From: a virus
Direction: 5' to 3' (one strand)
Length of the DNA stretch: 64,000 nt
Virus record (IMG/VR): IMGVR_UViG_3300005253_000045
Coordinates: 1-64,000 of that record
The notes under the pieces are model-generated. The model was not told the DNA's origin and made no database searches. It was given only the letters and a program-made list of their open reading frames with translations. The position numbers and the translations under genes were made by a program. Positions 4,612-63,682 of this stretch are shown in pieces. The number at the start of each line of letters is the position of its first letter. Within the stretch, counting starts at the first letter, position 1.

Positions 4612-4624
4612 GAAAAAACCTAGA

Positions 4625-4650
4625 GTCACTGACAATATATTGTGGGTGAC
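4625..4650. promoter_or_regulatory. 26-bp near-palindrome GTCACTGACAATATATTGTGGGTGAC (operator and/or terminator hairpin)
   Basis: 24/26 identical to the perfect palindrome at 48467-48492; abuts the -35 box at 4651. Confidence 0.6.
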
Positions 4651-4680
4651 TTGACATTAGGCATTCTCCACAGCTATAAT
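4651..4680 (+). promoter_or_regulatory. Sigma70-type promoter for the scaffold/capsid operon
   Basis: TTGACA (4651-4656), 18 bp, TATAAT (4675-4680); SD AAAGGAGG before ATG 4710. Confidence 0.85.
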
Positions 4681-5735: not shown

Positions 5736-5769
5736 GCCTAGACCTAACACCTTAGGAAGGAACAATTCA

Positions 5770-6990
5770 ATGCCAGGTACAACTGAAACCATGCGTTTCG
5801 CTGGTATGCCAGATAGTGGCTACCCCGCAGAGTTCTTGCTTGACGGTTCTACGTCACTGCGAGTTCGCTGGGTGGCACCGCTTCTGGTAAACATGGCCGA
5901 ACGCTCCACGGACCTGCTAAAGTACACCGGTGGTGTCGAGCAGTTCCAGTACACACACGCTCGAATTGAATGGGTTGAGGACGACCCATGGAACCGTCGC
6001 CCAACTATTGGCTCTCGTAGCGCTGCAAGTGTAGCGAACGAAGTCCAAGACCTAACGGTTACGGGTGCCGCACATAGGTTCCCCGTGGGCACTGTGCTCT
6101 TTAACCGCCAGCGAGACGAGTTCGTCCGCGTTACCGGCCATGTCGATGGCGACACGCTGTCCATCATGCGTGACATCACCGGCCGTATCGACGAGACGTC
6201 TGTTGCGTGGGTTGCCACCGACGAAGTGTTTGTCGCCGGCTTCTCCATGCACGAGAACGACAACTGGGTGTTCCGGCCCACCAGCCTGACCACCATGCCG
6301 TACAACTACTCTCAGGTTCACTCTGTGGGCGTCCAGGCGACGTTCCGCATGATTGAGACTCAGCAGTACGGCCTTCAGGGGAACGACCTGGACAAGCAAG
6401 CTGCCGACACCGTAGCGGAGCAGTTCGTTACGATGGAGCAGGAGTTTGTTCATGGTGACCGGTTCGCCGGTACCTCTGCGATTCCTGCTCTAATGGGCGG
6501 TATCTTCGACTTCATCACGGCCGCGAACGGCGCCCAGGTCACTGACCTGTCTGATGCGGCTCTCGTCCGTAGTGACATTGATGACATACTTCAATCCCTC
6601 TTCTACGAGGTAGGTGGTGACAAGATGGCTAAGACCATCGTATGCGCCGCCTGGCCAAAGAGGAAGCTGTCCAGCTTCTTCAGTGGCGCCGAGCGTCTCG
6701 GCCCGGGTACTGGCCAAACGGCTGGTGTCGTGGTTGACCGCTTGAACACTGACTTTGGTGTCTTGGACATTCTTATGCATACGGCGGTGCGTCAGGACGA
6801 ACTGTACCTCCTCCGGCAGGAAAATCACCGGATGGGTCATCACGGAACGCTTGGCCGGCCTCAGCTACGCCAGCTTCCCCCGTCCTCGACTGGCCCTCGT
6901 ATTCAGCAGGCATTCTACGCGGATGTGAGTGCAATCCACTCCGGCCCGCGTGCTGAGGCCCGCATTCATGGAATGAGCACTACGACCTAA
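5770..6990 (+). CDS. Major capsid protein (SU10/DUF5309-like, HK97 fold)
   Basis: Motifs IEWVEDD, YNYSQVHSVGVQAT, MEQEFVHGDR, LMGGIFDFI, TDFGVLDI typical of SU10-type MCPs; 406 aa; follows scaffold. Confidence 0.8.
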   Translation: MPGTTETMRFAGMPDSGYPAEFLLDGSTSLRVRWVAPLLVNMAERSTDLLKYTGGVEQFQYTHARIEWVEDDPWNRRPTIGSRSAASVANEVQDLTVTGAAHRFPVGTVLFNRQRDEFVRVTGHVDGDTLSIMRDITGRIDETSVAWVATDEVFVAGFSMHENDNWVFRPTSLTTMPYNYSQVHSVGVQATFRMIETQQYGLQGNDLDKQAADTVAEQFVTMEQEFVHGDRFAGTSAIPALMGGIFDFITAANGAQVTDLSDAALVRSDIDDILQSLFYEVGGDKMAKTIVCAAWPKRKLSSFFSGAERLGPGTGQTAGVVVDRLNTDFGVLDILMHTAVRQDELYLLRQENHRMGHHGTLGRPQLRQLPPSSTGPRIQQAFYADVSAIHSGPRAEARIHGMSTTT

Positions 6991-14224: not shown

Positions 14225-16510
14225 ATGAGCGATGCTGTCGCCGATGATGGTGAATATCAGGACGATACAATCACGCTGAATGGCGTGAAGCTAGCCGTCA
14301 ACAGCCCTATACGGGCCGGAATGGTCTCCGAGTTCAGTACGGGCATGAAGGTGGGTAAGGCAACCTATGATGAGCGCCTGCACGCCTTTTGGATAGCTCT
14401 CGATGATTTCTCTGGAGGATTCGGCTTCAGGCAGTTAGACGTCCGAGAAGCGGGCGGAACTCACTTCGACAATGTGGGGGGCGTTGACCTTCGCCGGCCG
14501 CGCCACATCACCCTCCCCGCACGGCGGGACACACTAGACCCTCCGTCCGACCCTGCCCTCAGTACTCTTATTTCCTGGCAGGACTCCATGATTTACAGCG
14601 ACATCTCGGGCGCTGAGCGTCTCTACGTAGCTATCTTGGAGGACATCTTCTACTTAGACATTGAGCGTAGCGTCCTTACCCGGGTCTACGATGGGTCGGC
14701 CGACCCCGACGGTGCTAATGCCCCGCGCTTTGGGCGTATCATAGAAGGGGTGGCGTCAGACGGTACACGCTTCCTCCTAGCCACTGGCGTGGATGCTACC
14801 GGCTCTGAAGAATACGTCCGCACGGAGGATGGGGGTACTTGGGTAAAGAGCTCGGGTATTCCAGCCACACCTGCCGCTAATGCCTCTATGCAGCTCTCAG
14901 ACGCTATCTGGTGGAATGGTCTTGTCATAGCACATGGCGAGGGAGACCAAATTATTGGTTCCTCCGATGGTAAGGCTTGGGACGTTGACGAGGCAGGCCT
15001 TCTCGACCCGCGCTGGCGCACCGGGGGTAGTTTTGTTCGCTTTGTCGGTACTGCTATGGCCCCATGGGGCTATGATGCCCCCTACTTCCTCAGCAAAGGG
15101 CATTTGTGGATACTAGACTGGTATCTTTACAATGCCGTCAAAGTCGAAGACCTGGGCGATAGAAACGTACTACGCGCCGGTGTCGTTTGGAATGGCTCCA
15201 TCATCGTTACAGATGGGTGGAACATTTGGGAGTACAACCCCGGCAACGCCCAGACGGTACGGCGAATTGGTCTCTTTGGAAAAGACGGTCCTCCCCCCAG
15301 CACCAGGTCTGACACCGGACACCCTGGACAAGCCGATAACTACTATATCACTCACTTTATCCCCGGCACATCCGACCTATTTGCTATCTGCCGGAGCCTG
15401 ACTGGCGCCGGCGCCGCGGTAGGGGCACCCTCATGGCGCTTAGCGGTCTACAATGGGGTTGGGTGGAGCTGGTTTGGGTCTGAAGTAACCTCTTCACAGG
15501 CGTACGCAGGGATTATGGGGATATTCCCCTCTGCCCTCTCACTCCAACTACCAACTAGGACTATTGACGTGGTGGCTATCGCGGACCAGAATAGTACCGA
15601 CTGGAACCTGCACACTATCCACCTTCCCCCTGTAGGCGACATCCCAGTCCCCGGCCCAGGCCAGCGCTTTGAAGACGGCCCTCTATCCTTTGAGACGGGA
15701 TGGTTTGATGGCGGGTTCGCCGAGTTGGAAGGAGCACTTCTCCAACTGTCATTCGATGGGTACTCTATGAGTGACACGGAAACTGTACTCGTCGAGTACC
15801 GTCTGAATAATCAGACGGAGGCCACGTATGAAACGCTAGGCACATTCAAGAAGAACAGCCAGAAGATATGGTTCTCCGACGACCACAGGGGGGTACCCTT
15901 TATGTCGGTGCAGTTCCGTATCTCTCTTGACCGTGGTATTGGCGTGAAGTTCTCCGACGCGGGCACAAACGTAAGTGATGCTGCCTTCGATGCAGGAGAC
16001 GTTAGTGTCACAGTTCAGGATAGTTCCCTTTTCCGCATTGGAGACGTCGTGCGCTTTGATGAAGAGCAGTGTCTAATCACCGCCATTACCGCGGCCTCGG
16101 AGCTACTCACCATCACCCGCGGGTACAACAGTACTACCGACGCAGGTCATAGCAATGGTATCGACGTGTACGCCGAGGAGGGCGTAAGTCCCGAGATTAA
16201 GGCTCTCATCCTTGTCTACGACAAGGTACCGAAGATGCGTACCGCCTGGACTATTCGTATCGATGTGAGCAGGATGATAGAACGTCCGTTCAGCATAGAT
16301 GAGGAAACAGCCACTACAGAGAGTATCTGGCAGTTCCTGAAGTCCCTGGTAAACACCCCAACCCTCACAAAGATGGTGGTTCCCTCCATGGAGAGTGGGG
16401 GCGTCAATGTACGAATTACAGACATGCCTGCCACTATCTCCGACTTCCGTACGGCGATGGGCGGCAGAGGTTTCATCGAACTTCAATTGATTGAAACGGT
16501 CGGTGAGTAG
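14225..16510 (+). CDS. Putative tail nozzle / stabilisation protein (beta-propeller)
   Basis: 761 aa beta-rich, DDFSGGFG near N-terminus, SFETGWFD near C-terminus, follows adaptor genes as T7 gp12/P22 gp10 do. Confidence 0.55.
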   Translation: MSDAVADDGEYQDDTITLNGVKLAVNSPIRAGMVSEFSTGMKVGKATYDERLHAFWIALDDFSGGFGFRQLDVREAGGTHFDNVGGVDLRRPRHITLPARRDTLDPPSDPALSTLISWQDSMIYSDISGAERLYVAILEDIFYLDIERSVLTRVYDGSADPDGANAPRFGRIIEGVASDGTRFLLATGVDATGSEEYVRTEDGGTWVKSSGIPATPAANASMQLSDAIWWNGLVIAHGEGDQIIGSSDGKAWDVDEAGLLDPRWRTGGSFVRFVGTAMAPWGYDAPYFLSKGHLWILDWYLYNAVKVEDLGDRNVLRAGVVWNGSIIVTDGWNIWEYNPGNAQTVRRIGLFGKDGPPPSTRSDTGHPGQADNYYITHFIPGTSDLFAICRSLTGAGAAVGAPSWRLAVYNGVGWSWFGSEVTSSQAYAGIMGIFPSALSLQLPTRTIDVVAIADQNSTDWNLHTIHLPPVGDIPVPGPGQRFEDGPLSFETGWFDGGFAELEGALLQLSFDGYSMSDTETVLVEYRLNNQTEATYETLGTFKKNSQKIWFSDDHRGVPFMSVQFRISLDRGIGVKFSDAGTNVSDAAFDAGDVSVTVQDSSLFRIGDVVRFDEEQCLITAITAASELLTITRGYNSTTDAGHSNGIDVYAEEGVSPEIKALILVYDKVPKMRTAWTIRIDVSRMIERPFSIDEETATTESIWQFLKSLVNTPTLTKMVVPSMESGGVNVRITDMPATISDFRTAMGGRGFIELQLIETVGE

Positions 16511-34009: not shown

Positions 34010-36658
34010 TCAAACCGACTTCAGGCTACCGAAGGACTGACCAATTTGCACATCGACGGGTATCTGCCACCCCAGCTTCTCCCCATTTGTCAGCACGGTG
34101 TTCATTGCTATGTCCTGCCATAGCTCTTTCACTGTGACGGCCGCTTCCTCTAACCGGTCTAGTGGGGCGTACATTGCCAGGCTGTCGTGCATCTCCATGA
34201 TAGGCTCGACCCAGGAGGATAGCTCCCGCTCAGTAGCGATGTGGGCTAAGGAGTGTAGGTCGTGGGCTCCTGACTGCACGGGCATGTTGAACCCCTGACG
34301 GACGACGCCCTCTAGGTCCCCCCGGTACCGCAGGGCTTTGAGGATGGGCACCTCAAGGAATTGCCGGCGCCGGCCAAACTTGTTGCCGATAGACCCCCGC
34401 TGGAACATCTCCTCCCGAACGCGAAGGAAGAAGGGCGCCATGTTTGGAAAGATGTACTGGATGTAGTGCGCGAGGAGTGGAGCAGCCTCTTGTACCGAGC
34501 ACCCAAGGCGTTGTGCCGCGCCCTCTTCAGTCAGGCCATAGTTCATACCGAAGACAAACGTCTTACCGCGGTCACGAATCGTCTTGTACTTAGTCTTCCA
34601 CTCCTCGAGAGAGAGGCCGTCGTCTACGATGTCGGCGGGGAACCTGCTGGAAACTCCCAGCTTACATAGCTCTCGAGCAACGTGAGCATGGATGTCGGCC
34701 CCACTCAACAGAAGATTGAGGAGCACCTCATCCCCAGTCTCGTAGGCCATGACCCAGACCTCGGCCTGGCTCCAGTCAGCATTTATCATCCCAAAACCAG
34801 GAGGCGAACCGAACATATCCCGGACGGCATCGTCCGAGTCAATCCCATACTTCTCGTCGTGGATAGAGATGTCCTTAGGGGGGTTCATGAGGTTAGGATA
34901 CTCGCAGGAGAAGCGTCCTGTTGCTGCTCGAGCGGAGTTCCAGCGGGCGTGAATGCGGCCGTCCTCCCGGATGTGGAACCGGAAACCGCCGTCCTTTCCC
35001 CCGTCCATGTAGGTACCCGAGAACTTCTCAAGGTGGCGAATGTCGACGAGAATGGGTAGTCCCTCATGTTGTACCCGCTCATTCAGCTCTTTCAATTCGT
35101 CGGCGCCCGTCTTCGCGTGTTGGGATGAGCACGGCGCCTGTGCCTTTTTACACTTCTGGCACTCCTTACGCGCACTGTCTATAGGGGTGGCGGTAAGTGG
35201 TAGCCCCCACTCCTCGAAGACGAGCTTCTGCACAGTCTGGTAGTAAGAAGGCTTCTCTACCTCACGGCCTACGAACTCGTTCAGCCTCTCCTTCTCCGTA
35301 TCTAAGCGGTCTCGGTAGTAGAGGCAGAGTTTGTCGAAGTGCTCTTGGTCTATGTATACTCCCCGCTCCTCTAGCTTTGTGGCGCAGCGAATGAGAGGGA
35401 TGCTGATATTATCGTAGACCCACAAGGACTTTTCTTCTTCTACCTGTGAGTGGAGGATGGGAACTAGGGTCTGTACTACGTCGACGTCGGCGCCGGCGTA
35501 CTCCCATAGTTCCTTGTCCGGGACTTCCCACATTTTCGATTTCATGGATTTCAGCCCAGCCTCGTAGTACGGTATGTCCGTATGAAGTGCCGTTAGGAGG
35601 GTGAGGTTGGCTGGAGTAGACTCTGACATGAGCGTCGATAGAAGACGGGTGTCCTGCTGGACATTGTTGACGTGGAACCCAAAGGCGGTAGAGACAGTGA
35701 CCACCTTCTCGTCGACGCTACGCTCCAACATCCTGAGGTCGAAACCAATGTTCTGCCCGGCCTTTGGCTTATCCGAGCGGAGGATTTCGTCGAGGATTTC
35801 TATCACCTCGGGTAGTTCGGTATCCAAGTCCCAGTAGGGTACTGGGCACCACTCTGTCTCAGGAACCTCCTTACGATTCTTCCCCCGCCCCTTCATTTTC
35901 ATGACTGTGCACTCGCCGCGGTGAAGGATAGGGACAGCGTACCCTATGCCCTCATCGGCTGTGAGACTTACGCAGAGCAGCTCTGAGTCCATCCAGCTTA
36001 ACCCCGTCGTCTCAGTATCAACAGAGATGATGGAAACGTCAGGCCCTAACAGGTAGTCTCGCAGGGCTCGAAGGTCTTCTAGGGTCGTGATGCCTGCGTA
36101 TGAGCCGTACTTCTCGGCGACGCCTCCCTGCTCCATGATGCGCTTGGCCTTGCGGAAGTGTGCTAGCACCAAGGCCGCCTCATCCCAGTGCCCACGAGAA
36201 ATATAACTGGGGTGGTAGGTTGGAATCACAGGTATGCCCGGGAGCTCATCGTTATAGAGGGTGAAGCCCATCACCTCCCGTACGCCGACCCCCGGTTTGT
36301 ACAGGGAGCGGATAGCCGGGCCTCCAAGGGCGACGATGACTGAGGGGTTGACGGCCCGCAACTCCTCTATGAGGTAGTCATGGCAGGCGTCTATCTCTGA
36401 AGGCTTCGGGTTTCGCTCGCCCCAGCAGCGCGTGGCGTTTGTGTAGTAGGATAGATGCTGGTTGATACCGGCCGCCCACTCCATGATGCGGAGTACACGG
36501 CCCGCCTTACCCACAAAGGGGCGCCCCTTCTGATTCTCGAAGGCACCTGGGCCCTCACCAACGAAGGCTATCTTAGCGTGTGTTGGCCCTGTGCCGTTGA
36601 CCACACACTTCCGCCCTTGAAGAGCTGGGCAGCGGCTACAGTCCTTAGGAGGAGGCAT
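34010..36658 (-). CDS. polA: DNA polymerase A with N-terminal family-4 uracil-DNA glycosylase and 3'-5' exonuclease
   Basis: UDG: CxxC, VGEGPG, RPFVGKAG, TNATRC, TYHPS. Exo: VDTETTG, NIGFDL, YAGAD. Pol: ADWSQAE, RGKTFVFGMNYG, MHDSL. Confidence 0.92.
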   Translation of the reverse strand: MPPPKDCSRCPALQGRKCVVNGTGPTHAKIAFVGEGPGAFENQKGRPFVGKAGRVLRIMEWAAGINQHLSYYTNATRCWGERNPKPSEIDACHDYLIEELRAVNPSVIVALGGPAIRSLYKPGVGVREVMGFTLYNDELPGIPVIPTYHPSYISRGHWDEAALVLAHFRKAKRIMEQGGVAEKYGSYAGITTLEDLRALRDYLLGPDVSIISVDTETTGLSWMDSELLCVSLTADEGIGYAVPILHRGECTVMKMKGRGKNRKEVPETEWCPVPYWDLDTELPEVIEILDEILRSDKPKAGQNIGFDLRMLERSVDEKVVTVSTAFGFHVNNVQQDTRLLSTLMSESTPANLTLLTALHTDIPYYEAGLKSMKSKMWEVPDKELWEYAGADVDVVQTLVPILHSQVEEEKSLWVYDNISIPLIRCATKLEERGVYIDQEHFDKLCLYYRDRLDTEKERLNEFVGREVEKPSYYQTVQKLVFEEWGLPLTATPIDSARKECQKCKKAQAPCSSQHAKTGADELKELNERVQHEGLPILVDIRHLEKFSGTYMDGGKDGGFRFHIREDGRIHARWNSARAATGRFSCEYPNLMNPPKDISIHDEKYGIDSDDAVRDMFGSPPGFGMINADWSQAEVWVMAYETGDEVLLNLLLSGADIHAHVARELCKLGVSSRFPADIVDDGLSLEEWKTKYKTIRDRGKTFVFGMNYGLTEEGAAQRLGCSVQEAAPLLAHYIQYIFPNMAPFFLRVREEMFQRGSIGNKFGRRRQFLEVPILKALRYRGDLEGVVRQGFNMPVQSGAHDLHSLAHIATERELSSWVEPIMEMHDSLAMYAPLDRLEEAAVTVKELWQDIAMNTVLTNGEKLGWQIPVDVQIGQSFGSLKSV

Positions 36659-39181: not shown

Positions 39182-40191
39182 TAGGAAGCCTCCTCTAAGT
39201 GACGCTGCACCTCTGCCTTTACCTTTGGCTCGAGGTCTCCGAGCTCCGCCAGCAGCTCGGGTATGGACATCTGGTCTGCGCGTATACCCTGGCCCAGGAG
39301 CTCGACGAAGTTGCTTATCTCATCTGCATCCACGCCCTCTAGCTCCACAGTGTCGTCGGGGCTACGCCGGCCGAACACTTCAAGGGCGGGGAGGACATCG
39401 GGAAGAGGTACCTCCTCAACCGACACCCCATCCTTGTCCACACCTACTAACAAAACCTCTATGGTTCGGGCGTAGCTGGCCAGGTCTCGGCGTGTGCGGG
39501 CCACACTGCCAGGGTTGGCGAAGACGGTAGTACCCACCTGCACCACGCCCAGAGACTCGTGGATATGCCCAGATACCAGCAAATTGTAGTCCTCGAGGCC
39601 CGGTATCTGGCTGACGTCAACAGTGGGGTACTGGCGGCTATCGCCTGGTGCTACAAGGGAGCCGTGGGCCAGGCCAATGACCGGGGCCTTCTGCCCGCGT
39701 ATCTTTTCGTGCTCCTCCTCAGTGAGGGCGTAGTAGGAGGGGTCAGTCACACCGGTGTGGACGCCTTCGGCAACAGCGTTGTAAGGCCGCGGGACAATCC
39801 AGAACTCAGGGTTACCGTCCTTCACCCCAAAGCCCTTCATCTCCATCAACAGTTCGATAGCCCCTGCCTTCTCCAGGGTTCCCAGAGGTTGCCGTGGGAG
39901 ACTATCGATACCCTCGGGGCCGTAGTCATGGTTCCCTGGAACGACATAGACGGGGCAGGGGAAAGCCTTGAAGGCGCCGATGAGCCGTTGCACGAGACCA
40001 TGGCTGACCCTATTGGGCTGCTTTACGTGGTAGATGTCACCTGTAAAGAAGGCATGTTCGACCTTGTGCTTCTTGCAGAGCGCGGTGATACTCTCTAGCT
40101 TACCCAGCATGGTCTCCATGTAGTCATCTACCCGACCGCTAGGGGCCTTGTCTGCAATGTGCAGGTCACCTGCAAAGAGGAGGTTCATCAC
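39181..40191 (-). CDS. Mre11/SbcD nuclease
   Basis: GDLH, GDIYH, GNHD, AHGS, GHIH, NPGS. Confidence 0.9.
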   Translation of the reverse strand: MMNLLFAGDLHIADKAPSGRVDDYMETMLGKLESITALCKKHKVEHAFFTGDIYHVKQPNRVSHGLVQRLIGAFKAFPCPVYVVPGNHDYGPEGIDSLPRQPLGTLEKAGAIELLMEMKGFGVKDGNPEFWIVPRPYNAVAEGVHTGVTDPSYYALTEEEHEKIRGQKAPVIGLAHGSLVAPGDSRQYPTVDVSQIPGLEDYNLLVSGHIHESLGVVQVGTTVFANPGSVARTRRDLASYARTIEVLLVGVDKDGVSVEEVPLPDVLPALEVFGRRSPDDTVELEGVDADEISNFVELLGQGIRADQMSIPELLAELGDLEPKVKAEVQRHLEEAS

Positions 40192-40375
40192 CCCACCAAC
40201 CTTGTCAGTGCCCAGAAGGCACTGCCGGCAAAGAGTCCCGCAAAGCTACCCCCAATAGCACGCTCCGTGATGTCCTTGAGATTGAGGTGTCCCCGCCATC
40301 GGAACGGCCCGAAGCGGCGCTCTGGGGGTATGTTAAATACGGAAGCTATGCCCTGACTGGTACATCTAGCGCACA

Positions 40376-41341
40376 TTACGCACACTCCTTATGGTCAAGG
40401 AGACCACCACACTTCTCGCAGACACCGGCCTCTTCGCAGGCCGCCGCATATTGCTCCTCAAAGCTCTCTAATGCTGCCTTATTGTCGCTTATCCTGCCCT
40501 TCAGCTCGTCGACAGAGCGCTGGGCATCCGGTAGGCGTCGAGTGATTTCCTGCACACTGGCCGCTCTCTCTAGGCCCGCGGCCGCAAGGTCAAGCTGTTC
40601 CCTCAGCGGGGCAACGTCGACCGCCACGGCCCGGGAGCGTACCTCCGCTATCAGGTCATCAAGCTCCTGGGCCCGGCGGACGAGGGTCATACTGTCTTCG
40701 ATTGTTTGGAGGTTCTCGGCTACTGTATCAGCTCGAGCCTCCAGTGCCTCGTAGTCTGGGATAGAGGCCAGGCCCGCCTCTACTCCATCGAGTTCTGATG
40801 ATGCTGTCTCGGCCTCCCTGTGCGCCTGGTCACGTTCCTTCTTGCACGCCATTTGAGCAGTAACAACAGTATCAAGCCGTGTCGCCTTACCCAGGATACG
40901 AGCACGCTTGCTGCCTGTCTCATAGATAATAAAAGGGGCATCAAACTGGTCGGAAAGTTGTGGTGTAATGTCACTAGTAGCATCGATGTTGATAAGACCG
41001 ACGCCGAGCACCGAGGCAATCTCCTCTGGTACATTACCTCCCGTCTTGGTGAACTCTTTCTCCCCAAGGCGATAGCAACCCCCCTGCTTCTGCTTCTTCC
41101 ACCATTCGATAACCGTACCGTCCTCTAGGGTGAGAGCTACCTCTGTCTGTTTCTCCCCATGGCGAATATCCTCGTCGCTGGCATCATTCAAACAGAGGGC
41201 GCGGAAGGCCCGGAGTATGGCGCTTTTTCCCGCATCACCAGGCCCCACCAAAACTGTGAGATGGCCCAACTCAATAGTAGCGTCAGCTACAGATTGGAAG
41301 TTTTTGACTGTGAGTGACTTGACGGGCGAGTAGCTAGGCAC
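40376..41341 (-). CDS. Rad50/SbcC N-terminal half ending at the Zn hook
   Basis: VKNFQS, Walker A GPGDAGKS, Q-loop SDQFDAPF, coiled coil, terminal CEKCGG. Confidence 0.85.
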   Translation of the reverse strand: MPSYSPVKSLTVKNFQSVADATIELGHLTVLVGPGDAGKSAILRAFRALCLNDASDEDIRHGEKQTEVALTLEDGTVIEWWKKQKQGGCYRLGEKEFTKTGGNVPEEIASVLGVGLINIDATSDITPQLSDQFDAPFIIYETGSKRARILGKATRLDTVVTAQMACKKERDQAHREAETASSELDGVEAGLASIPDYEALEARADTVAENLQTIEDSMTLVRRAQELDDLIAEVRSRAVAVDVAPLREQLDLAAAGLERAASVQEITRRLPDAQRSVDELKGRISDNKAALESFEEQYAAACEEAGVCEKCGGLLDHKECA

Positions 41342-42368
41342 TTGGGTGGCCCCCCTTCAAGATTTCCCCGAGGGCGTCTAGTATCTCAGGATGTTCCTCG
41401 AGCTGCGCCTCGAAGTCGTCGCGGCGGAAGGGTTTGTTCTTCTCCCCGAATCGATACCAGCCCCCCGAGTGGGTAATGGCGCCCCGCTCTTGCAGTACGT
41501 CTAGGGCAGACCCAAAGAAGTCGGGGCCAGTCGCATCATAGAAGTCAAACTGTCGGGAGAAATCCTTACGGGTACAGGTCTTACAGTCCGCCACGGTGCA
41601 GCCCGCTATCCGTGTATCAATCAGGGTGGCAAGGATGTGGTGACCAATAGGACTGGTTGGGTCATCCCCAAACTTAGTCTTCTCCTGAAGGCGGATGGTG
41701 GTCATGGCAGCGTGGCCCAACGGGTCTTCCCCCAACCAGCTAGGTGCAGGGGCGCCCCAGGCGCCCAGGTTAATCTTCTGGCGGGGCTGAGTGGTGACCA
41801 CCAGGGCGATACGCTGCCGGTTCACAAGGTTGCTCATGACCCGAAGTTCTCGCTTGATGAGAATGGCCTGGGCGCCTAGCCCCTGCTTCTTACCCTCAAC
41901 TTCCTTCGCCATGGGGGCTCCCGCTATGGAGTCCAGTACGATAACGATACTTTCATCGTCCGTAAACTCATTGCGTGCGGCATGAATCATTGCCTTCACT
42001 CCATCAAAGGCTTCCTCTAGCGTATCGGGTTGGGCAATGATGAGCTTATCGATGTTGACACCTAGCTTCTCCGCCCGGTCGAAGTTGAGCCGGCCTTCTG
42101 TGTCGAAGATAACGGCCTGGCCTCCCGTCGCCTGGGTCTCGGCCAGGATGTTCAGGCAGATGGTACTCTTCCCAGACCCGTAGGCTCCTATGAAGAGCGT
42201 GATGCCCCCCATAGGGATGCCCGGCTTACCAATGAGGTAGTCCAGGGTCGGGTTCCTCGTACTGACGTAACCTGTGGGTTCGGCGATGATAGGACCGTCC
42301 TTGCCCAACTGAACCGTCAGGTCAGCGTCCTCCTGGAGGCGTTTGACTACTGCCTTGGGGTCGGACAC
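41334..42368 (-). CDS. recA: RecA/UvsX recombinase
   Basis: STRNPTLD...GIPMG, GAYGSGKST, FDTEG, VLDSIA. Confidence 0.85.
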   Translation of the reverse strand: MSDPKAVVKRLQEDADLTVQLGKDGPIIAEPTGYVSTRNPTLDYLIGKPGIPMGGITLFIGAYGSGKSTICLNILAETQATGGQAVIFDTEGRLNFDRAEKLGVNIDKLIIAQPDTLEEAFDGVKAMIHAARNEFTDDESIVIVLDSIAGAPMAKEVEGKKQGLGAQAILIKRELRVMSNLVNRQRIALVVTTQPRQKINLGAWGAPAPSWLGEDPLGHAAMTTIRLQEKTKFGDDPTSPIGHHILATLIDTRIAGCTVADCKTCTRKDFSRQFDFYDATGPDFFGSALDVLQERGAITHSGGWYRFGEKNKPFRRDDFEAQLEEHPEILDALGEILKGGHPSA

Positions 42369-53205: not shown

Positions 53206-53287
53206 TGGTGGAGGTGGCCAGTGTCGAACTGGCGTCCGGCCGGCCGCGCCTTAGCGCGTTATCCAACCGTCGAGCCCTCTCACCCCC
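53206..53287 (-). ncRNA. Mini-tmRNA: tRNA-like domain only (82 nt)
   Basis: GGGGGTG/CACCTCC acceptor stem with G3-U70, A73, CCA; stemless D-loop AGAGGGCTCGAC; helix CGGTTGG/CCGGCCG; GAC; T-arm GCCAG-TTCGACA-CTGGC; TATAAT 5 nt upstream. Confidence 0.75.
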
Positions 53288-57212: not shown

Positions 57213-57617
57213 TACCTCCTATGTCTAGCTCTCGTAGGACTCCGTCCCGCAGTCCCGACAGCGCCACCATGACAGACTGCCGAGAGTCCCTAGCAGTTCT
57301 AGCCTCTGCCCGTTACAAGCTGGACACATGATGCTCGCTCCTCTCTAATTTAACCAAGCGTCCGATTCTAACCGGGCTGCTGTGCGTATCTCCGGGTTGT
57401 CGTGGTACTCAAGGTCGCTAACGGCGATTCTCCAACGTGGCCATAGGTCGGGGTAGCCGTCGCGGTCGAACGCTGCCCGTGCTGCCGTAACTGCGGCTAT
57501 CACCTTGCGAGGGTCGTCACTGTTCTGCGCCCGCGTTAGTGCGCCTTTTGCTTTCCGATATGCCTTGTTTAGTGCGTCATAATCCATTGTCTCTTCCCCT
57601 CTCTCTACTGATAGTGA

Positions 57618-57745
57618 GAGAGGGTCGCCGGTTGGCACTCAACGGCCCCGCGCACGCCACCGCGCCACGGGCATGACTGGTAGGTGCTGCATTGAGCGCG
57701 TGGGTAAGAGCCATGCGCCCTGGCCATCGTACCGGCGACCCTCTC
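57618..57745 (-). ncRNA. Structured leader or small RNA closed by a 15-bp perfect stem
   Basis: GAGAGGGTCGCCGGT / ACCGGCGACCCTCTC; directly downstream of an AT-rich promoter-like element. Confidence 0.45.
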
Positions 57746-57780
57746 CTACTATATATTGTCGGCACTTTTGGGCAAAACTG

Positions 57781-57812: not shown

Positions 57813-59330
57813 GTCCGTTGCTAGGCGTTCGATACTCTTAACGCCAGGTTGAACGCGGGAGCTCCATCGCCCATACCGGCGAACGGGTGAAACGTCCGTG
57901 ACTCTTGGCAGCCCGCATCCTTACAGACGCCCTCAATGTTTCCGCGTGTTAGGCGCTCTGTGTAGAGCTCGCCGTCATACTCGCCGCCGACAATGCGCCG
58001 GCGAGACTGTAGGCAAGGCTCTAATGCCCATCTGTGTACGTGTGTCATGGCTAGTCGCTCTCCTCCTCTTCCTCGTTTAATGCTCTTGCTTCCGCGCTTG
58101 CTTCCACTTGCGTTGTAGCTAAGCAAACCACTTCCCCGTCGCTTGTGTCTACTACTTCCCAACCGTGTTGGCACGGGAAGCCACCTTCAGCTGCGCGTTG
58201 GTAGGTGAATCGCTCCATTCGGCCACGCCTCCTCTCTGTTGTAGTGTATCCGGCCCTAGTATTGGGTACGCTCTATGAGCCGCCGCTAACCAGTGGGCGC
58301 TAGGGCCGGATACGTTAGGCTATACGCTTGACACTCTTAACCGACGTCGGCCGGCCGTTGCGAGAGTCGAAGTGCAGCAGAGTCTTACGCGCTACCGTCT
58401 GTTCGTCTCGCGTGCCGTCTGCATACTTGATTCTGTAGGTAGGCATAGTCTACTCCTCTGTGGGGACTTCCGATGTACTAGCGGTTATTCGTATGCGTGT
58501 TCTGGTAGACCAGGCGCGAACGTGCGGCCACAGCCGCTATCTATTACGCCTTGCAGCACGTCCTTGCCCCCTTGCCCGCATGTTACCGCCTCTGTAACCG
58601 CCTCAATTTCTGTGTTGATAAGGTTACAGTCGGGGCATATCCAGTCATACCCGCTGGCGATTAGGTCAACTCTATCCATCGTCTGCTCCTCTACCTGCTA
58701 GAATGCCGAACCCGTGACGGGTTCGCATTGATAGAGACGTCCGGTAGCCGCAGGGCTAGCATGGTCGCCTCAGTAGGCGGGTACAAACGTTGGCCCTGTT
58801 GCGTGGTCTCGATGGTCATGCACCGCCTCTTCCAGCGCCTCAAGCGCCCTCATGTGGAGAAGCTCTGAGTCGCTGTAGGGTTCGCCGTGGGCGATTGTGC
58901 CCTCGCGGGGGTCTGTAAACTCCGTTTCGTAGTGTCCCCGCCATTCGCAACGCTGGCAAGCGATGACAACGCCAGCCATACCGTCTGACACTACGCGGAA
59001 CGCCGATTCAAACATGATGATACCCGCTAGCACCGTGGGCACTCCATGCTATCAGGCTCTTGGTTTGGTACAAGCCCTAGCCGTAGCTCGCCAGCATATA
59101 CGGCTTGACTGAATCCTGCGTTGGGCGATTGTAGCTCTTCGTTAGAGTATGGCTCGCCGTTGTCGGACGCCCCCATTACATCCTTGAGTGCAGACGTGGT
59201 CAGTACCAGTGCGGCTCGTAGCTGTTCGTTAGTAGCGTTGGGCATGGTCGTTACTCCTATCTGTTGGCGCTAACCCAGCGGCTACCGGATGTCTCTTGAG
59301 ACCAGCGAAACACGGCGCGTTAGCATGCGG

Positions 59331-59555
59331 TTACTTCGACGGGATGCCGCAGTCTGTACAGTTTTCGGGGCAGCAATTCGGGCAGTGGCCGTCGCTGGGT
59401 GTAACATGTCCTGGCTCCTCGGTGCATTCTCCGGCCACACAGCATTGCGGTTCGGTTAGCTGGACGCAGGGTTCGCAGCTACACACGCAGCTATCCTTAC
59501 CCGTGCAGAATGTATAGGCGTCGTTACAGTGATTGATTGTTTCGTCGTGTGACAT
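59331..59555 (-). CDS. Metallothionein-like Cys-rich protein (14 Cys in 74 aa)
   Basis: SD GAGGAG; enclosed by a perfect 29-bp stem. Confidence 0.6.
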   Translation of the reverse strand: MSHDETINHCNDAYTFCTGKDSCVCSCEPCVQLTEPQCCVAGECTEEPGHVTPSDGHCPNCCPENCTDCGIPSK

Positions 59556-60141
59556 TGCGTGTTGCTCCTCTCTATGCTAACGCGCCGTGTTTCGCTGGTC
59601 TCTTGAGGGGACACAGAGAGCGGGGCGTCATAGTTCCCTAGGCTCTCGCTATTAGCCATTCTATACGTGTCCGTGGGCGCTTCCAGCCTATGCCGTGGCA
59701 TGGCCGGTGCATCTTGTCATGGTCACATGTCGAATTGCAGTCAAGGCAGTATAGGACGCCCTCGCCTTCACAGGTAATACATATGAGCCAGTCGGTATCC
59801 TTGTATCGGAACATGGCGCACTTACTTGACCGCGAATCCGGCAACCTTGCGGGCAATTCTAACATGGCCGGACGTCGTAACGCGGTAGAAGCCTTCAGAC
59901 GGTACAGCGTGACCGCCTACGGTTACTTGCTCGCGGGCCGTGTAGTTGAATACTACCGGTACATTGTTTCGCCATTCCCCGATACAGAGTTCGTACGAAT
60001 GGATTGTCCGGCCGTCTGTATGCATGTGTGCGCTAGCGCCGGCCTGACCGTTTGCCCAGGCTTGCGCTACCTGTTGGTTCGTCATTGGCGTGTCTCTCCC
60101 TTCTCCCTCAAAACCCCTTGTCAGTCACTCCATGTATTCGC

Positions 60142-60456
60142 CTAGCCTTTGTACCGTGGGTTCGGCACGGGTACATAGGCCGGCTCTTCCGTCTCGTAGG
60201 CGTCGCTCCCATCCTCATTCCATACGTCGCAGAAGCCTGTATATGCCATCGCATCCGGCCCGCGTAGCTCTGCTGGTATCAGTAGGACTCGAATCGAGTC
60301 ACTGTATCGCTCCAACGCGTTCCGCCCGAATGGGTTATTGTCGGCATCTACTAGCTCAAGGTATCTGGTCAGCGCCTCTTCTACGTTGTGGAAGGCACCA
60401 GACTGCATCATGTAGCCGCTACCTCGCGGGTGTTGGACGTGTGCGTGGTACAGCAT
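60142..60456 (-). CDS. Hypothetical early protein (loop of stem 60105/60508)
   Basis: SD GGGAG; fits exactly between the stem arms. Confidence 0.7.
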   Translation of the reverse strand: MLYHAHVQHPRGSGYMMQSGAFHNVEEALTRYLELVDADNNPFGRNALERYSDSIRVLLIPAELRGPDAMAYTGFCDVWNEDGSDAYETEEPAYVPVPNPRYKG

Positions 60457-60618
60457 AGTCGTTTACTCCCTTCGGTATTGGGGAGTGACTGGCAAGGGGT
60501 TTCGAGAGTGTGCTACCAGATGCCACCTACAAGGGGTTCCGCGTTGCTGTGTGTTGCTATCCTGCCTTCTGTACCGTTTCAAGACGCTCATAACTTGTTC
60601 GGAATCCCTATTGCTCCC

Positions 60619-60753
60619 CTATTCTCTCAGAGCTGCAATATGCTTTATGAAACACACGCTTAAACCTGCATCTTGCACTAATTCTCGTAACCATGCTTCA
60701 CTGTCTGTTTGTTTCATCCGTAGATAAGCATGGATAATCTCGTGAAGATTCAT
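60619..60753 (-). CDS. 44-aa hypothetical early protein (not in ORF track)
   Basis: MNLHEIIHAYLRMKQTDSEAWLRELV...; SD AGGAGG; inside stem 60512/60805. Confidence 0.55.
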   Translation of the reverse strand: MNLHEIIHAYLRMKQTDSEAWLRELVQDAGLSVCFIKHIAALRE

Positions 60754-60851
60754 GTTTGATTTCCTCCTGTTGGGGCGAAACCCCCTGTAGGTGACACCTG
60801 ATAACGGAGCGTTGCCTCAATACCTAGAGTCAGTCACTCCATGTATTCGCC

Positions 60852-61103
60852 CTAGTTGCCTGTTGCGGCCTTGCGTGGCTGGGCCGCTTCCGTTGTCCCT
60901 AGACGCTCTACCGTCCGTATAGCGTCCGCCCTGTCTACACAAGGTATGGTTTGTATCTGCGAGTTAAGCGGCCCAGCGAACCAACCGTATGGAGTGCTCC
61001 ATACCTGGCCGATGATACGCCCTTCACTGTTACGGATACCGTGTGAGCCGCGCTCAACTGGCGCGTCCGCTTGGAATCTCCCTGTCCGGCTATCTTGTGT
61101 CAT
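60852..61103 (-). CDS. Hypothetical early protein (start MTQDSR)
   Basis: SD GGGAG; inside perfect 26-bp stem. Confidence 0.7.
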   Translation of the reverse strand: MTQDSRTGRFQADAPVERGSHGIRNSEGRIIGQVWSTPYGWFAGPLNSQIQTIPCVDRADAIRTVERLGTTEAAQPRKAATGN

Positions 61104-61197
61104 TGTGCGCTCCCTTCCCAATAGTGGGGAGTGACTGACTCTAGGTATTGAGGGTGTGCTACCAGATGCCGCTGACAAGAGGTTCCCGTGCTGCCTA

Positions 61198-61419
61198 TTA
61201 GACGGTTACGTATATATACTTTCGCGTGTCCGTGTGCTTGAAGCCCCACTCTACATGGCCCCGCCACGGCGTTCCGTGCATCAACATGTATTCTTTGGGG
61301 TTGCGGCCGGTGGCTATGAGTGCTTGCCACACGGCATCCCATTGTGGGCTGTCACGTTCTGCGAATATGTAGCCGTTTGGGTTCGAGTCTACCGTGCCGT
61401 CTGGATTGAACGTAGCCAT
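61198..61419 (-). CDS. Hypothetical early protein
   Basis: SD AGGAG; inside 31-bp stem. Confidence 0.7.
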   Translation of the reverse strand: MATFNPDGTVDSNPNGYIFAERDSPQWDAVWQALIATGRNPKEYMLMHGTPWRGHVEWGFKHTDTRKYIYVTV

Positions 61420-61938
61420 GGTACGCGCTCCTATCCCGGAAACCCCTTGTCAGTGACACCTGATAACGGAGCGTTGCCGTGTGGCGAGTCTGACGTCCCG
61501 CTCTCTGTGTCCCTCTCTATTTATTTACCGAGTGAGCCTCACGAGGTTGCTACCCGTTGCCCCTCTGTCCGCCTCTGCTAGTGCGTTGTCCGTGCGTGCT
61601 AGCTGCGCGGGGGCCGTAGTCACCAACCCCTGTCCGGTATGCTCCTGGCCGGCCATACGGGCCGCTATGCCCTGCCGGCCATTGGAGTGCTGTGTCTTGG
61701 CCTATCTCATCAGATACGGGCGGCCATTCCCGTATGACTACCGCCATAGTTTCGACTGTGCTAGGCGTATCTGCTCTTAGCTTCCGTGCTAACACCTAAC
61801 CAACATCGGGTACATACCCATACGATACCGTTGTACCGTTCAATCTTGCTTCCGCACTCCCCGCACGGGCTTTCGGCGTGTCGCCATGCATATACTCGTG
61901 TCATTGTCGCTACTCCTCCTCTCGCCTCTATCATCGGT

Positions 61939-61967
61939 AGTCTATCATAGACCTGAAGGGCTGTCAA
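61939..61967 (-). promoter_or_regulatory. Strong early sigma70 promoter driving the stem-array transcript
   Basis: TTGACA-17-TAGACT; SD GAGGAGGAG before ATG 61904. Confidence 0.75.
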
Positions 61968-62019
61968 GGGTATGGAGCTAATCAAGGCCAGGGGCAACTG
62001 CGGCTAATGGCGAGTGCCT

Positions 62020-62290
62020 CACTCTAGGTATCAGGGGTATGGGCGGGCTAACCAGGTGTGAGGGACAATGGGTTGTCAGTGACTCGGGGTGCTGGGTGCG
62101 CTAACCAGGTGTCAGTGACTCGGGGTGCTGGGCAGGCATGCGACATCATCTCGCATGATACATCATCCGCACGATACATGTCTAGTCGCGCCATACATCA
62201 TTCGCGCCCGCGCAGGGTCGTCCGTGCTGGTACGGGGGCGTTATGGTGTGTTATGGGAAGGGTGACGTTATGGTGTGGGTGTTGGGAGTG
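62020..62290. repeat. Non-coding short direct-repeat patch
   Basis: TGTCAGTGACTCGGGGTGCTGGG x2, GCTAACCAGGTGT x2, ATACATCAT x2, GTTATGGTGTG x2. Confidence 0.7.
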
Positions 62291-62923
62291 ATAGGTTAGA
62301 CCCCACACACTCTACGCTGAAAATTGGAGAGAAATTGAGAAAACCTGCCGCCACAGGCTGGTTTCACATAGGGGGTGTCGTAAGGAACAGGGCATCACCT
62401 CCTTCGTTTAACGGGTGTAGCCTACTCGTGCTTTACTTGACTTTGGCCCGCTCATTGTGGTGTCGCGCCTCTTCCTCCGCAGCGTCGAGGTCCCAGAGCA
62501 CCCTCCGTACCATGTTGCCGAAGTCGAACTTCCAGCCGGCGCCGCTTTTCGGCAGCAAATTGGCCACCCGTTGCAATTCGGCCCGGTCGATGGCTGTTGT
62601 CATTGACATTTCGCGCCTCCTGCCTCCATTATAGCGCATTTTCGCGTGCTACGCCGGTCCACCCGGTCGAAACAGGCCGCCAGAACCGCTTTCGGCGGCT
62701 TCAGAGTGCCTATCGCGCCACTAATACCTGCCCGAGGGGGATTTCTGGTACTCTGATGTCATTCTCCACCGGTTTAGCCGGCGACGCGGCGTTTCATCGT
62801 ATGAGCCGGGGTGTTCGAGTGAGTGACACCCGATAAATGTTATGGCTGGTGCGCAAAAAAAGAAACGACCGCCACGGATTACGAGAATATACGCGCAATC
62901 GCGTAGGCTAGGGGATTATTCGC

Positions 62924-63682
62924 CTAATCGTCCGGTTCAGACTCTAGTTGGGGGTGCTCGTGTGTGCCTATAGGCTCCCAGCCATCTTCGTCCGTAGCTC
63001 GAATTAAGTCTCGGTGAGCTGCCTCGGCTCGCTCTGCCCTCTCGTTTTCATCGTTGGGGACACACCCGCAGCACTGGCCGTCGTTAAAGGGGTTGATGCA
63101 CCAGTAGTTGCCGTCCATGCAGGGGCCGTCGTCTCGGCGCCACCCTTCCTCCTGGAGGTCTATCTCTACTCCACAGCCCGGACAAGTTGTGTTGGGGGGT
63201 AGGTCATAGTTACGCTCTGCGAGCTCGACGTCGAAGTCGGCCCACTTACGTCTTTCCTTTTCCTCTGCTTCGGCCTCTGCCACCCGTACACGGGCGGCTA
63301 TTTCCTTTTCGCCTGAGTTTTCTAGGGCTGTAGCTAGTTGTTTAAGTGTATCTGCGGCACTCCTCGCGGCCTCTGCTTCCATAATTTCCGTGGCACCCAT
63401 TTCGGCCGGAGGGTCTTCAAGCTCCCACACCTCAGCATAGTCCGAGACGGTCTTGATGAGGCACTTCGTGCATTCCCACCACCAGCAGGTCTCTTCCCGG
63501 TCGACGTCAGCGTAGTACACCTCGTAGTAGGATGCCCAGGGACGGAACGTGTCGCAGGTGTCGCATCTCTTGAAGTACCTGCGTGTGGGCTCCTGAGTCC
63601 AGGCGTTGGCTGTACCGTGTGCGCATCCACCGTGGAGGTCTTGTCCTTTCATTTTGAACACCTTGCTATGTAGAAACTTCAC
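62924..63682 (-). CDS. Hypothetical Cys-rich/acidic protein
   Basis: 252-aa ORF with several CxxC pairs. Confidence 0.55.
   Translation of the reverse strand: MKFLHSKVFKMKGQDLHGGCAHGTANAWTQEPTRRYFKRCDTCDTFRPWASYYEVYYADVDREETCWWWECTKCLIKTVSDYAEVWELEDPPAEMGATEIMEAEAARSAADTLKQLATALENSGEKEIAARVRVAEAEAEEKERRKWADFDVELAERNYDLPPNTTCPGCGVEIDLQEEGWRRDDGPCMDGNYWCINPFNDGQCCGCVPNDENERAERAEAAHRDLIRATDEDGWEPIGTHEHPQLESEPDD

Follow-up and report, generated by a model that had tools for sequence, protein, structure and literature searches.

Seven long-range helices (S0–S6) were found on the minus strand at positions 58733–61517 of the virus record IMGVR_UViG_3300005253_000045 (IMG/VR), each comprising 25–32 pairs and each enclosing a ribosome-binding site and one or two small genes. 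The stretch analysed (the window) consists of bases 1–64000 of this complete 75,628 bp record, which carries terminal repeats and comes from a marine sediment metagenome assembly. The arms of each helix pair, the pairing exceeds chance and is maintained by compensatory changes, the same architecture is present in relatives, and homologous slots hold unrelated cargo genes; the cassettes would be expressed as messages. As a whole, the array is best explained by RNA helix modules placed around early cistrons, which would act both as substrates of RNase III and as handles for recombination. We rate this explanation at somewhat better than an even chance.

Architecture of the helix array

S1–S4 are nested inside S0, and S5 and S6 follow directly after it, with 0–9 nucleotides (nt) between successive helices. 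The helix energies range from −46 to −62 kcal/mol. All seven helices were recovered in the minimum-free-energy fold of the minus-strand RNA from 62100 to 58700 (3.4 kb); sub-folds gave z values of −7.4 and −3.8, with the closing helices retained in the centroid structures. Nine stems with at least 20 Watson–Crick pairs were counted in the early region of this genome, compared with a mean of 0.03 in shuffled sequences. All of the arms are non-coding. The 5′ arm ends 17–25 nt ahead of the start codon, with a Shine–Dalgarno (SD) sequence in the gap, and the 3′ arm starts 4–11 nt past the stop codon (76 nt in the exceptional case of S3). On one side, conservation spans the arm and continues up to and including the SD; on the other, it takes in the stop codon and everything to the end of the arm. 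S0, S5 and S6 have arms that bear no relation to those of S1–S4, and where two cassettes adjoin, the arms next to each other are not complementary. All of the cargo is on the minus strand. A consensus scan located no promoter-like site between the cassettes and one upstream of them at 61967–61939 (minus strand), a σ70-like promoter candidate preceding the gene that opens the operon (TTGACA, 17 nt, TAGACT, with TG) that rests on a 10/12 consensus match only.

The coordinates of the helices, all on the minus strand, are as follows. The outer helix S0 joins a 5′ arm at 61491–61517 to a 3′ arm at 59605–59630 through 25 Watson–Crick and no G–U pairs (−49 kcal/mol) over a distance of 1860 nt, and encloses two further genes besides S1–S4. 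The 5′ arm of S1 (61437–61467, scaffold type A) is followed by a 17 nt leader with an SD and pairs with the 3′ arm at 61158–61188, 9 nt past the stop codon, through 24 Watson–Crick and six G–U pairs; 248 nt lie between the arms, and the cargo is an open reading frame (ORF) of 73 residues with an SD (61198–61419) that matches no Pfam or PHROGs family. In S2 the 5′ arm (61128–61154, scaffold type B) forms 26 of 26 perfect pairs with 60815–60840; it is followed by a 24 nt leader with GAAGGGAG and an 83-residue ORF (60852–61103), and the 3′ arm (60814–60840), 287 nt away, is preceded by a conserved trailer bearing the stop codon (CTAGGGCGAATACAT). S3 begins with the type A copy (60775–60805), which makes 25 Watson–Crick and six G–U pairs with the 3′ arm at 60512–60542 across 232 nt and is followed by a 21 nt leader and a 44-residue cargo ORF (60619–60753; G+C content 0.39). 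The type B copy forms the 5′ arm of S4 (60482–60508), with a 25 nt leader and a 104-residue ORF that belongs to a protein family (60142–60456); it makes 24 Watson–Crick and two G–U pairs with the 3′ arm (60105–60131), which is 350 nt away and is again preceded by the conserved stop-bearing trailer. Two genes, of 87 and ~58 residues (59638–60085), lie inside S0 without a helix of their own.

S5 is the strongest helix, with 29 contiguous perfect pairs and 32 in total (no G–U; −62 kcal/mol) between 59574–59607 and 59293–59326; its arms are 247 nt apart and enclose a Cys-rich protein of 74 residues (59331–59555). In S6, 25 Watson–Crick pairs and one G–U pair join 59268–59296 to 58733–58761 across 506 nt, and the cargo consists of two overlapping ORFs of 72 and 87 residues (58770–59245). 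A solo third copy of the type B 5′ arm module is found at 62005–62041 (minus strand), upstream of the promoter-like site, where it belongs to direct-repeat family D1 and inverted pair I13.

Three further sequence features were recorded around the array. An extra 22 bp stem with a 98 nt loop (57611–57752, minus strand) lies downstream of it, just upstream of an 80-residue gene (57587–57345). Upstream, in non-coding sequence, an operator-like motif recurs; it reads ACAATGGGTTGT and precedes a short palindrome, which is GTCAGTGAC in this phage and GTGAGTCAC in relatives. The sites are 62040–62130 in the window, 1960–2170 and 14429–14527 in relative L006, 3879–4032 and 14013–14141 in L027 and 727–921 in L030, a second location for the motif occurring in relatives. 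Words resembling TTGTCAGTGAC are enriched in the window (seven versus 1.1 expected) and recur within the S1–S4 arms, and a palindrome with such a word (TTGTCAGTGAC) occurs at 4624–4651, between the gene for a 1536-residue protein and the next structural gene.

Duplicated scaffold and cargo genes

An earlier note on this DNA had described a duplicated non-coding scaffold at 60105–61478 with standardized slots for unrelated genes. The scaffold is real, but the span is only part of the feature, since the array begins and ends outside it and the promoter-like site, first gene and ribozyme carry the operon up to ~61967. The four motifs that the note quoted were each found exactly twice where it had placed them: GACACCTGATAACGGAGCGTTGCC at 60793 and 61455, GTGTGCTACCAGATGCC at 60508 and 61154, GTCAGTCACTCCATGTATTCGCC at 60120 and 60829, and GTCTCTTGAG at 59291 and 59598. 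Alignment of units 61490–60814 and 60816–60105 in the transcript sense gave three near-identical blocks, namely (i) the 5′ arm of type A plus leader and SD, (ii) the 3′ arm of type A joined to the 5′ arm of type B plus leader, and (iii) the trailer plus the 3′ arm of type B. The blocks are 80–93% identical and repeat with a period of ~650–710 nt. Compensating changes in the stems, also reported by the note, were reproduced: CUGAC/GUCAG in S1 is CCUAC/GUAGG in S3, and in total four pairs (S1 versus S3) and five pairs (S2 versus S4) have changed on both sides and are still paired.

The dissimilarity of the cargo holds as well. The ORFs between the scaffold blocks align at chance level, and BLASTP of the cargo pairs in equivalent slots (73 versus 44 residues and 83 versus 104 residues) gave no alignment at E ≤ 100. 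The profiles of the S2 cargo family and the S4 cargo family, set against each other in a type of check that the note had proposed for all four cargo proteins, gave an hhalign probability of 0.1%, and the families are unrelated. For these reasons duplication followed by divergence is excluded for the cargo genes, and with it the alternative, raised in the note, that they are distant paralogues.

The S4 cargo belongs to a family of 40 related clusters (61–83% identity), two of which are named marine sediment metagenome by source, and the S2 cargo has four related clusters (~70% identity). The last 12–14 residues of the S2 cargo (60852–60893, minus strand) are missing from its four homologues; the frame therefore appears to run on to a stop codon supplied by the scaffold. 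A viral scan with the S2 cargo gave no match. The 87-residue protein inside S0 has 116 related clusters. With a G+C content of 0.39 against ~0.56 for its neighbours (0.53–0.59 in the window), the S3 cargo is foreign as judged by composition. Searches of Pfam, PHROGs and a protein atlas for a cargo function yielded uncharacterized phage families only. Homologues of the S4 cargo occur in phages of other lineages with 43–46% G+C, where a 50 nt direct repeat and local hairpins flank the gene and no stems were found. One of these (L033, 3932–4405; 70% identity, in a phage with 46% G+C) has copies of the 50 nt repeat that are 90% identical and include a leader and SD, with a local hairpin ahead of each copy; this arrangement does not bracket the gene by a helix and resembles the PeSL element, in which a σ70-type promoter and a local terminator stem-loop make up a unit that recurs in direct orientation (PMC2839356, PMC4122927).

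In the deep run X3, contig breaks coincide exactly with the two S5 arms, and on crossing them the contig depth rises in steps (129, 221 and 288), a weak hint of co-occurring variants with common arms and different content. No RNA run is listed among those that contain this sequence. Separately, the contig depth in this run climbs stepwise from ~105 at 57 kb to 640–740 at 62.1–63 kb, and sequencing-adapter sequence is attached to the contig ends at 62130, 62458 and 62839; the rise at 62130–63000 may reflect segments common to co-occurring relatives or a preferred fragment end.

Exact-motif scans for other carriers of the scaffold were negative for a 24-mer in viral contigs and for a 20-mer in JGI metagenomes. 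A scaffold 17-mer gave two matches, which were rejected as chance because the contigs concerned (36% G+C) share nothing else with this phage.

Related phages

The AAA/DUF5925 protein (closest relative 63% identical) and a 169-residue Cys-rich protein were used as anchors, and gave four related IMG/VR contigs (L027, L028, L029 and L030). All four are syntenic with this phage from ~58.0 kb downwards, and in the stretch corresponding to the array they have no proteins in common with it. In that position L027 has three abutting gene-enclosing helices of 27–31 bp, L030 has three abutting helices of 21–30 bp with a fourth one farther along, L028 has a single helix (27 bp), and no strong stems were found in L029. 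The helices of L027, L028 and L030 are situated just downstream of a similar operator-rich region.

L027 and L028 have one slot in common. Its 5′ arm, leader and SD are ~97% identical over ~85 nt and its 3′ arm is ~90% identical, and the enclosed ORFs are unrelated (no BLASTP match). The same gene is not always present in a given slot, and the claim of standardized slots holding unrelated genes is borne out both by the paralogous scaffolds of this phage and by homologous arms in its relatives. The foreign composition of the S3 cargo and the quite different flanks around the S4 cargo family in other phage lineages lend it further support. The 3′ arms of the common slot differ by three substitutions, all of which keep the pairing through wobble on the sense strand. 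In this module family the unrelated cargo proteins all end in Glu-Gly, with the stop codon inside the 3′ arm (GGTTAG/CTAAC; L027 4514–4517, 5055–5061 and 5291–5296; L028 3758–3761). Since these codons fall within the conserved 3′ module, the module supplies the last codons of whichever gene it follows.

The operon in the relatives also contains local intergenic hairpins of 30 bp (L006 and L027). These are much more stable in the sense (−59 to −70 kcal/mol) than in the antisense strand (−43 to −52 kcal/mol), with G–U to A–C ratios of 4:0, 6:1 and 8:1, and the orthologous hairpins L006 6152–6258 and L027 8189–8295 show matched changes in their arms (CCAC/GTGG versus CTTC/GAAG).

A scan with the 19-mer of the L027/L028 leader returned those two contigs only. 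No relatives were obtained with the 242-residue neighbour as anchor, a metagenome scan with A2 gave two short contigs only, and two genome-contig scans gave no match.

Helix stability on the two strands

S1 and S3 contain six G–U pairs each and pair fully on the transcribed strand only; as duplexes they reach −52 and −59 kcal/mol, respectively, in the sense strand, but −31 and −35 kcal/mol in the antisense strand. The sense strand is strongly favoured in S1, S3, L027 c3 and L030 c4. Action in RNA is also favoured by the double-sided changes that keep the paralogous helices paired, by the wobble-preserving substitutions in the 3′ arms of L027 and L028 and by the sense-biased local hairpins of the relatives. 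We consider it probable that the helices act at the RNA level in the sense transcript; RNA rather than a DNA recombination site is indicated by the anatomy, in which the mRNA would pair across the gene.

A predicted hammerhead ribozyme at the head of the array

The operon opens with a gene (61761–61904, minus strand) for a Cys-rich, zinc-ribbon-like protein of 47 residues; the ORF has a GGAGGAG SD and a weak, sub-cut-off match to DUF7573. A type II hammerhead ribozyme is predicted at 61696–61757 on the minus strand, 3 nt past the stop codon of this gene and 178 nt before S0 (Rfam RF02276; 39 bits, with the gathering score at 37; E = 2.4e-5). Its core is intact, with CGAAAC, GUC and CUGAUGA all present, and the predicted cut is after GUC, between 61736 and 61735. 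By inspection, the loop UGGCC can pair with the tail GGCCA, and a loop–tail pseudoknot has been described for type II hammerheads (PMC3088659). In its family score, intact core and position between phage genes the element resembles the type II hammerheads of phage intergenic regions (PMC3088659), from which it differs in heading an array of gene-enclosing helices. None was found elsewhere in this genome or in the relatives L005, L006, L027 and L030. If it cleaves as predicted, RNA processing would be built into the transcript of the array.

Genomic setting

Genes on the minus strand extend from ~64.8 kb down to 24.3 kb, with the helix array near the head of this block, and the late genes are on the plus strand. 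The genome encodes an SU10-type capsid protein, a fusion of uracil-DNA glycosylase (UDG) and PolA, a DnaB-like helicase and a primase. The fusion (34013–36658, minus strand) is a family A DNA polymerase with an N-terminal domain of the UDG superfamily; it is at most 24% identical to the polymerase of any isolated phage, which places this phage very distant from isolates. The array region gave no blastn match among 50,697 phage records. RecA/UvsX-like, Mre11-like and Rad50-like proteins are encoded by the phage and are presumably equivalent to UvsX and gp46/47 of T4. The genes for the Mre11-like phosphoesterase, the Rad50-like ATPase and the RecA/UvsX-like recombinase are consecutive (39184–42368, minus strand), as in a T4-style recombination module.

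The complete 75.6 kb genome has no tyrosine recombinase (PF00589 without a match at E ≤ 1; the control search gave matches in 14 of 14 genomes), and no serine recombinase, Y1 or rve transposase or reverse transcriptase was detected in it, other transposase families not being searched. A short tmRNA-like element at 53206–53287 (minus strand) aligns with the Rfam tmRNA model at its tRNA-like ends only (53 bits); the same element occurs in L030 at 5747–5819 (plus strand), where its 41 bits fall short of the gathering score. At least two members of the clade have it in conserved form, and ARAGORN calls none in this genome.

Proposed mechanism and alternatives

The region may be read as the head of a minus-strand early operon in which each cistron or cistron pair is enclosed by a long-range helix. 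The helix would form between a standard 5′ module (arm and a 17–25 nt leader with the SD) and a 3′ module (stop codon, short trailer and arm), and would be a substrate of host RNase III, an enzyme specific for double strands. Cleavage would divide the polycistronic RNA into individual messages, their ends still clamped by the remaining inner helix, so that each message would be stabilized and insulated from its neighbours, and the hammerhead would likewise cut off the first message. RNase III cuts two large stems flanking 16S and 23S rRNA in most bacteria (PMC6582327). Cutting by RNase III is the likeliest fate of the helices, because they match the geometry of the rRNA stems and have a suitable length; we would put its occurrence here at an even chance. 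The conserved modules would at the same time act as homology patches, as suggested by their conservation where the ORFs are not conserved, at which the RecA/UvsX-like and Mre11/Rad50-like machinery of the phage could exchange ORFs between slots and with co-infecting relatives. The replication and recombination system of T4 works on homology patches of less than 50 bp (PMC2839356), and exchange of ORFs by homologous recombination at the modules seems to us rather likely.

Several results weigh against processing at the RNA level. No RNase III and no protein with a double-stranded RNA-binding domain is encoded in the complete genome. The boxA of the Escherichia coli type occurs at chance level in the window and is absent upstream of the array, the variants of other hosts not being covered. 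Over 16 gene-enclosing stems the sense strand is more stable in nine and the antisense strand in five, which is not significant (Wilcoxon p = 0.13), and the excess of G–U over A–C (29:11 raw) falls to ~21:11 after removal of shared ancestry and is only suggestive. The perfect inverted repeats of S2 and S5 fit a recent origin or homogenization at the DNA level equally well, and the contig breaks at the S5 arms could reflect rearrangement of DNA. Because the stop codon lies inside the 3′ arm in L027 and L028, terminating ribosomes must melt part of the helix, and a plain cut-out model becomes less straightforward.

In the main rival explanation, helices formed in the mRNA are left uncut and clamp the 5′ and 3′ ends of each cistron, as in hok-type mRNAs, whose 5′ and 3′ regions pair over a long distance. 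Such a clamp would block exonucleases, restrict folding and so keep a newly acquired ORF from masking neighbouring ribosome-binding sites, or return terminating ribosomes to the start. It has the same anatomy in its favour, including stop codons inside or 4–11 nt from the 3′ arm and leaders of 17–31 nt, which bring termination beside initiation, and it is at ease with a phage that lacks RNase III. We nevertheless think it unlikely. Near-perfect RNA duplexes of 25–31 bp, which are generic RNase III substrates in almost all bacteria, would have to escape the enzyme, and the local 30 bp hairpins of the relatives enclose no gene and leave nothing to clamp. If instead the inverted repeats acted in DNA, with recombination inverting, deleting or exchanging the enclosed gene and RNA pairing incidental, then perfect repeats such as S2 (26/26) and S5 (29/29), the contig breaks and depth steps at the S5 arms (expected where other arrangements share the arms), the RecA-like and Mre11/Rad50-like proteins and the non-significant strand test would all be accommodated. 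Inversion, however, would put the gene antisense to the only apparent promoter; the arms differ between cassettes yet stay complementary through compensatory and wobble changes that identity of DNA does not need; S1 and S3 pair fully on the sense strand only; the arms always enclose an SD and ORF at fixed short distances; and there is no invertase or other site-specific recombinase. Action in DNA is therefore improbable in our view, more so than the uncut clamp.

Mobility by a dedicated enzyme, either integron-like or as small transposons that carry a passenger gene between terminal inverted repeats, would account for identical flanks around unrelated genes and for one cargo of foreign G+C content. 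It is very improbable. The statement in the earlier note that no integrase lies in the window holds and extends to the complete genome, which lacks the other recombinases and transposases searched for and reverse transcriptase too; one enzyme could not recognize all of the arms, because S0, S5 and S6 share no terminal sequence with S1–S4; and a flank that includes the SD and stop codon follows a logic of expression rather than transposition. The integron likeness drawn in that note fails on these grounds, as the arms bracket genes, adjacent arms are not complementary and no attC-like local hairpin is present. Tandem duplication of a two-gene unit whose paralogous genes have diverged beyond recognition can almost be dismissed: the scaffold itself, with its period of ~650–710 nt, may well be duplicated, but ORFs at chance level do not accord with flanks at 80–93% identity, the S2 and S4 cargoes belong to separate families, the cargo lengths differ (73 versus 44 and 83 versus 104 residues) and the S3 cargo has its own G+C content.

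Three other candidates were discarded. A retron-like reading was ruled out by the lack of a reverse transcriptase in the complete genome, an archaeal bulge–helix–bulge reading by helices that have no such bulges, and an invertible segment of the Gin/Hin type by the lack of a serine recombinase. The transposon form of the mobile-element reading, including a miniature inverted-repeat transposable element, was rejected as the arms are not common to all copies and the transposases searched for (Y1 and rve only) are absent.

Implications

If RNA helix modules of this kind do combine processing with exchange, one element would do two jobs, for which phage mRNAs offer no described precedent. It would also give a concrete answer to the long-standing question of how phages acquire foreign ORFans in plastic early regions and express them at once with no disturbance to the genes nearby. 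Excision by RNase III in the style of rRNA would extend to protein-coding phage messages, and hammerhead ribozymes would gain an added role in phage operons. The slot cargo would be enriched in candidate genes for host takeover or counter-defence, and the arms would provide a sequence-independent signature for the early operons of uncultured phages. More tentatively, and at something short of an even chance, phages of several lineages may use portable expression cassettes, in which paired modules would give an acquired ORF an excised, clamped and insulated message together with handles for recombination.

Comparison with known systems

In phage T7, RNase III sites between the early genes, which are local hairpins, process the early polycistronic mRNA into stabilized messages. 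The array would resemble them in the processing of phage early mRNA into single messages; it differs in that the helix strands flank the gene, local 30 bp hairpins being found in L006 and L027. In synthetic RNA-processing insulators, ribozyme or endonuclease sites between cistrons give context-independent messages. The likeness here is one of concept, a standard message for each ORF through flanking cut sites, and the array differs in being a natural system with a putative mechanism; if that mechanism holds, the helix modules would be natural counterparts of these synthetic-biology parts.

The leader–trailer helices around 16S and 23S rRNA in rrn operons (PMC6582327) are closer. In them, too, distant complementary flanks, hundreds to thousands of nt apart, enclose a unit of a polycistronic RNA, and helices of about two to three turns occur several in succession; here there are seven of 25–32 pairs. 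The differences are that the units are small protein-coding cistrons with their own SD, that the helices abut and nest, that the arms are modules reusable for unrelated genes, that no boxA was found and that cleavage is presumed.

PeSL cassettes of T4-type phages (PMC2839356, PMC4122927) share with the array conserved short regulatory modules that flank ORFans in a plastic early region and offer homology for shuffling by the phage's own recombination system. As with PeSL, the ORF is replaced between conserved repeats, here both within the genome and between L027 and L028. Unlike PeSL, the 0–9 nt segments between cassettes contain no promoter-like site in the consensus scan, the modules pair across the gene and no terminator-like site was found at the arms. 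Integron arrays likewise hold promoterless cassettes in the same orientation with unrelated cargo, structured boundaries and a common upstream promoter. They differ from the present array, which has no IntI and no attC hairpin after each ORF, and in which the SD and stop codon are part of boundaries that base-pair with each other from either side of the gene, with arms 232–1860 nt apart.

We found no published account of helices that enclose genes in phage mRNAs. This locus contributes clear evidence that arms, SD and stop codon together form modules used repeatedly for unrelated ORFs, in a single genome as well as across relatives, and it contributes a predicted ribozyme at the head of the array. 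On these comparisons the system would work like rrn processing helices combined with modular shuffling of the PeSL type, while being a member of neither the PeSLs nor the integrons.

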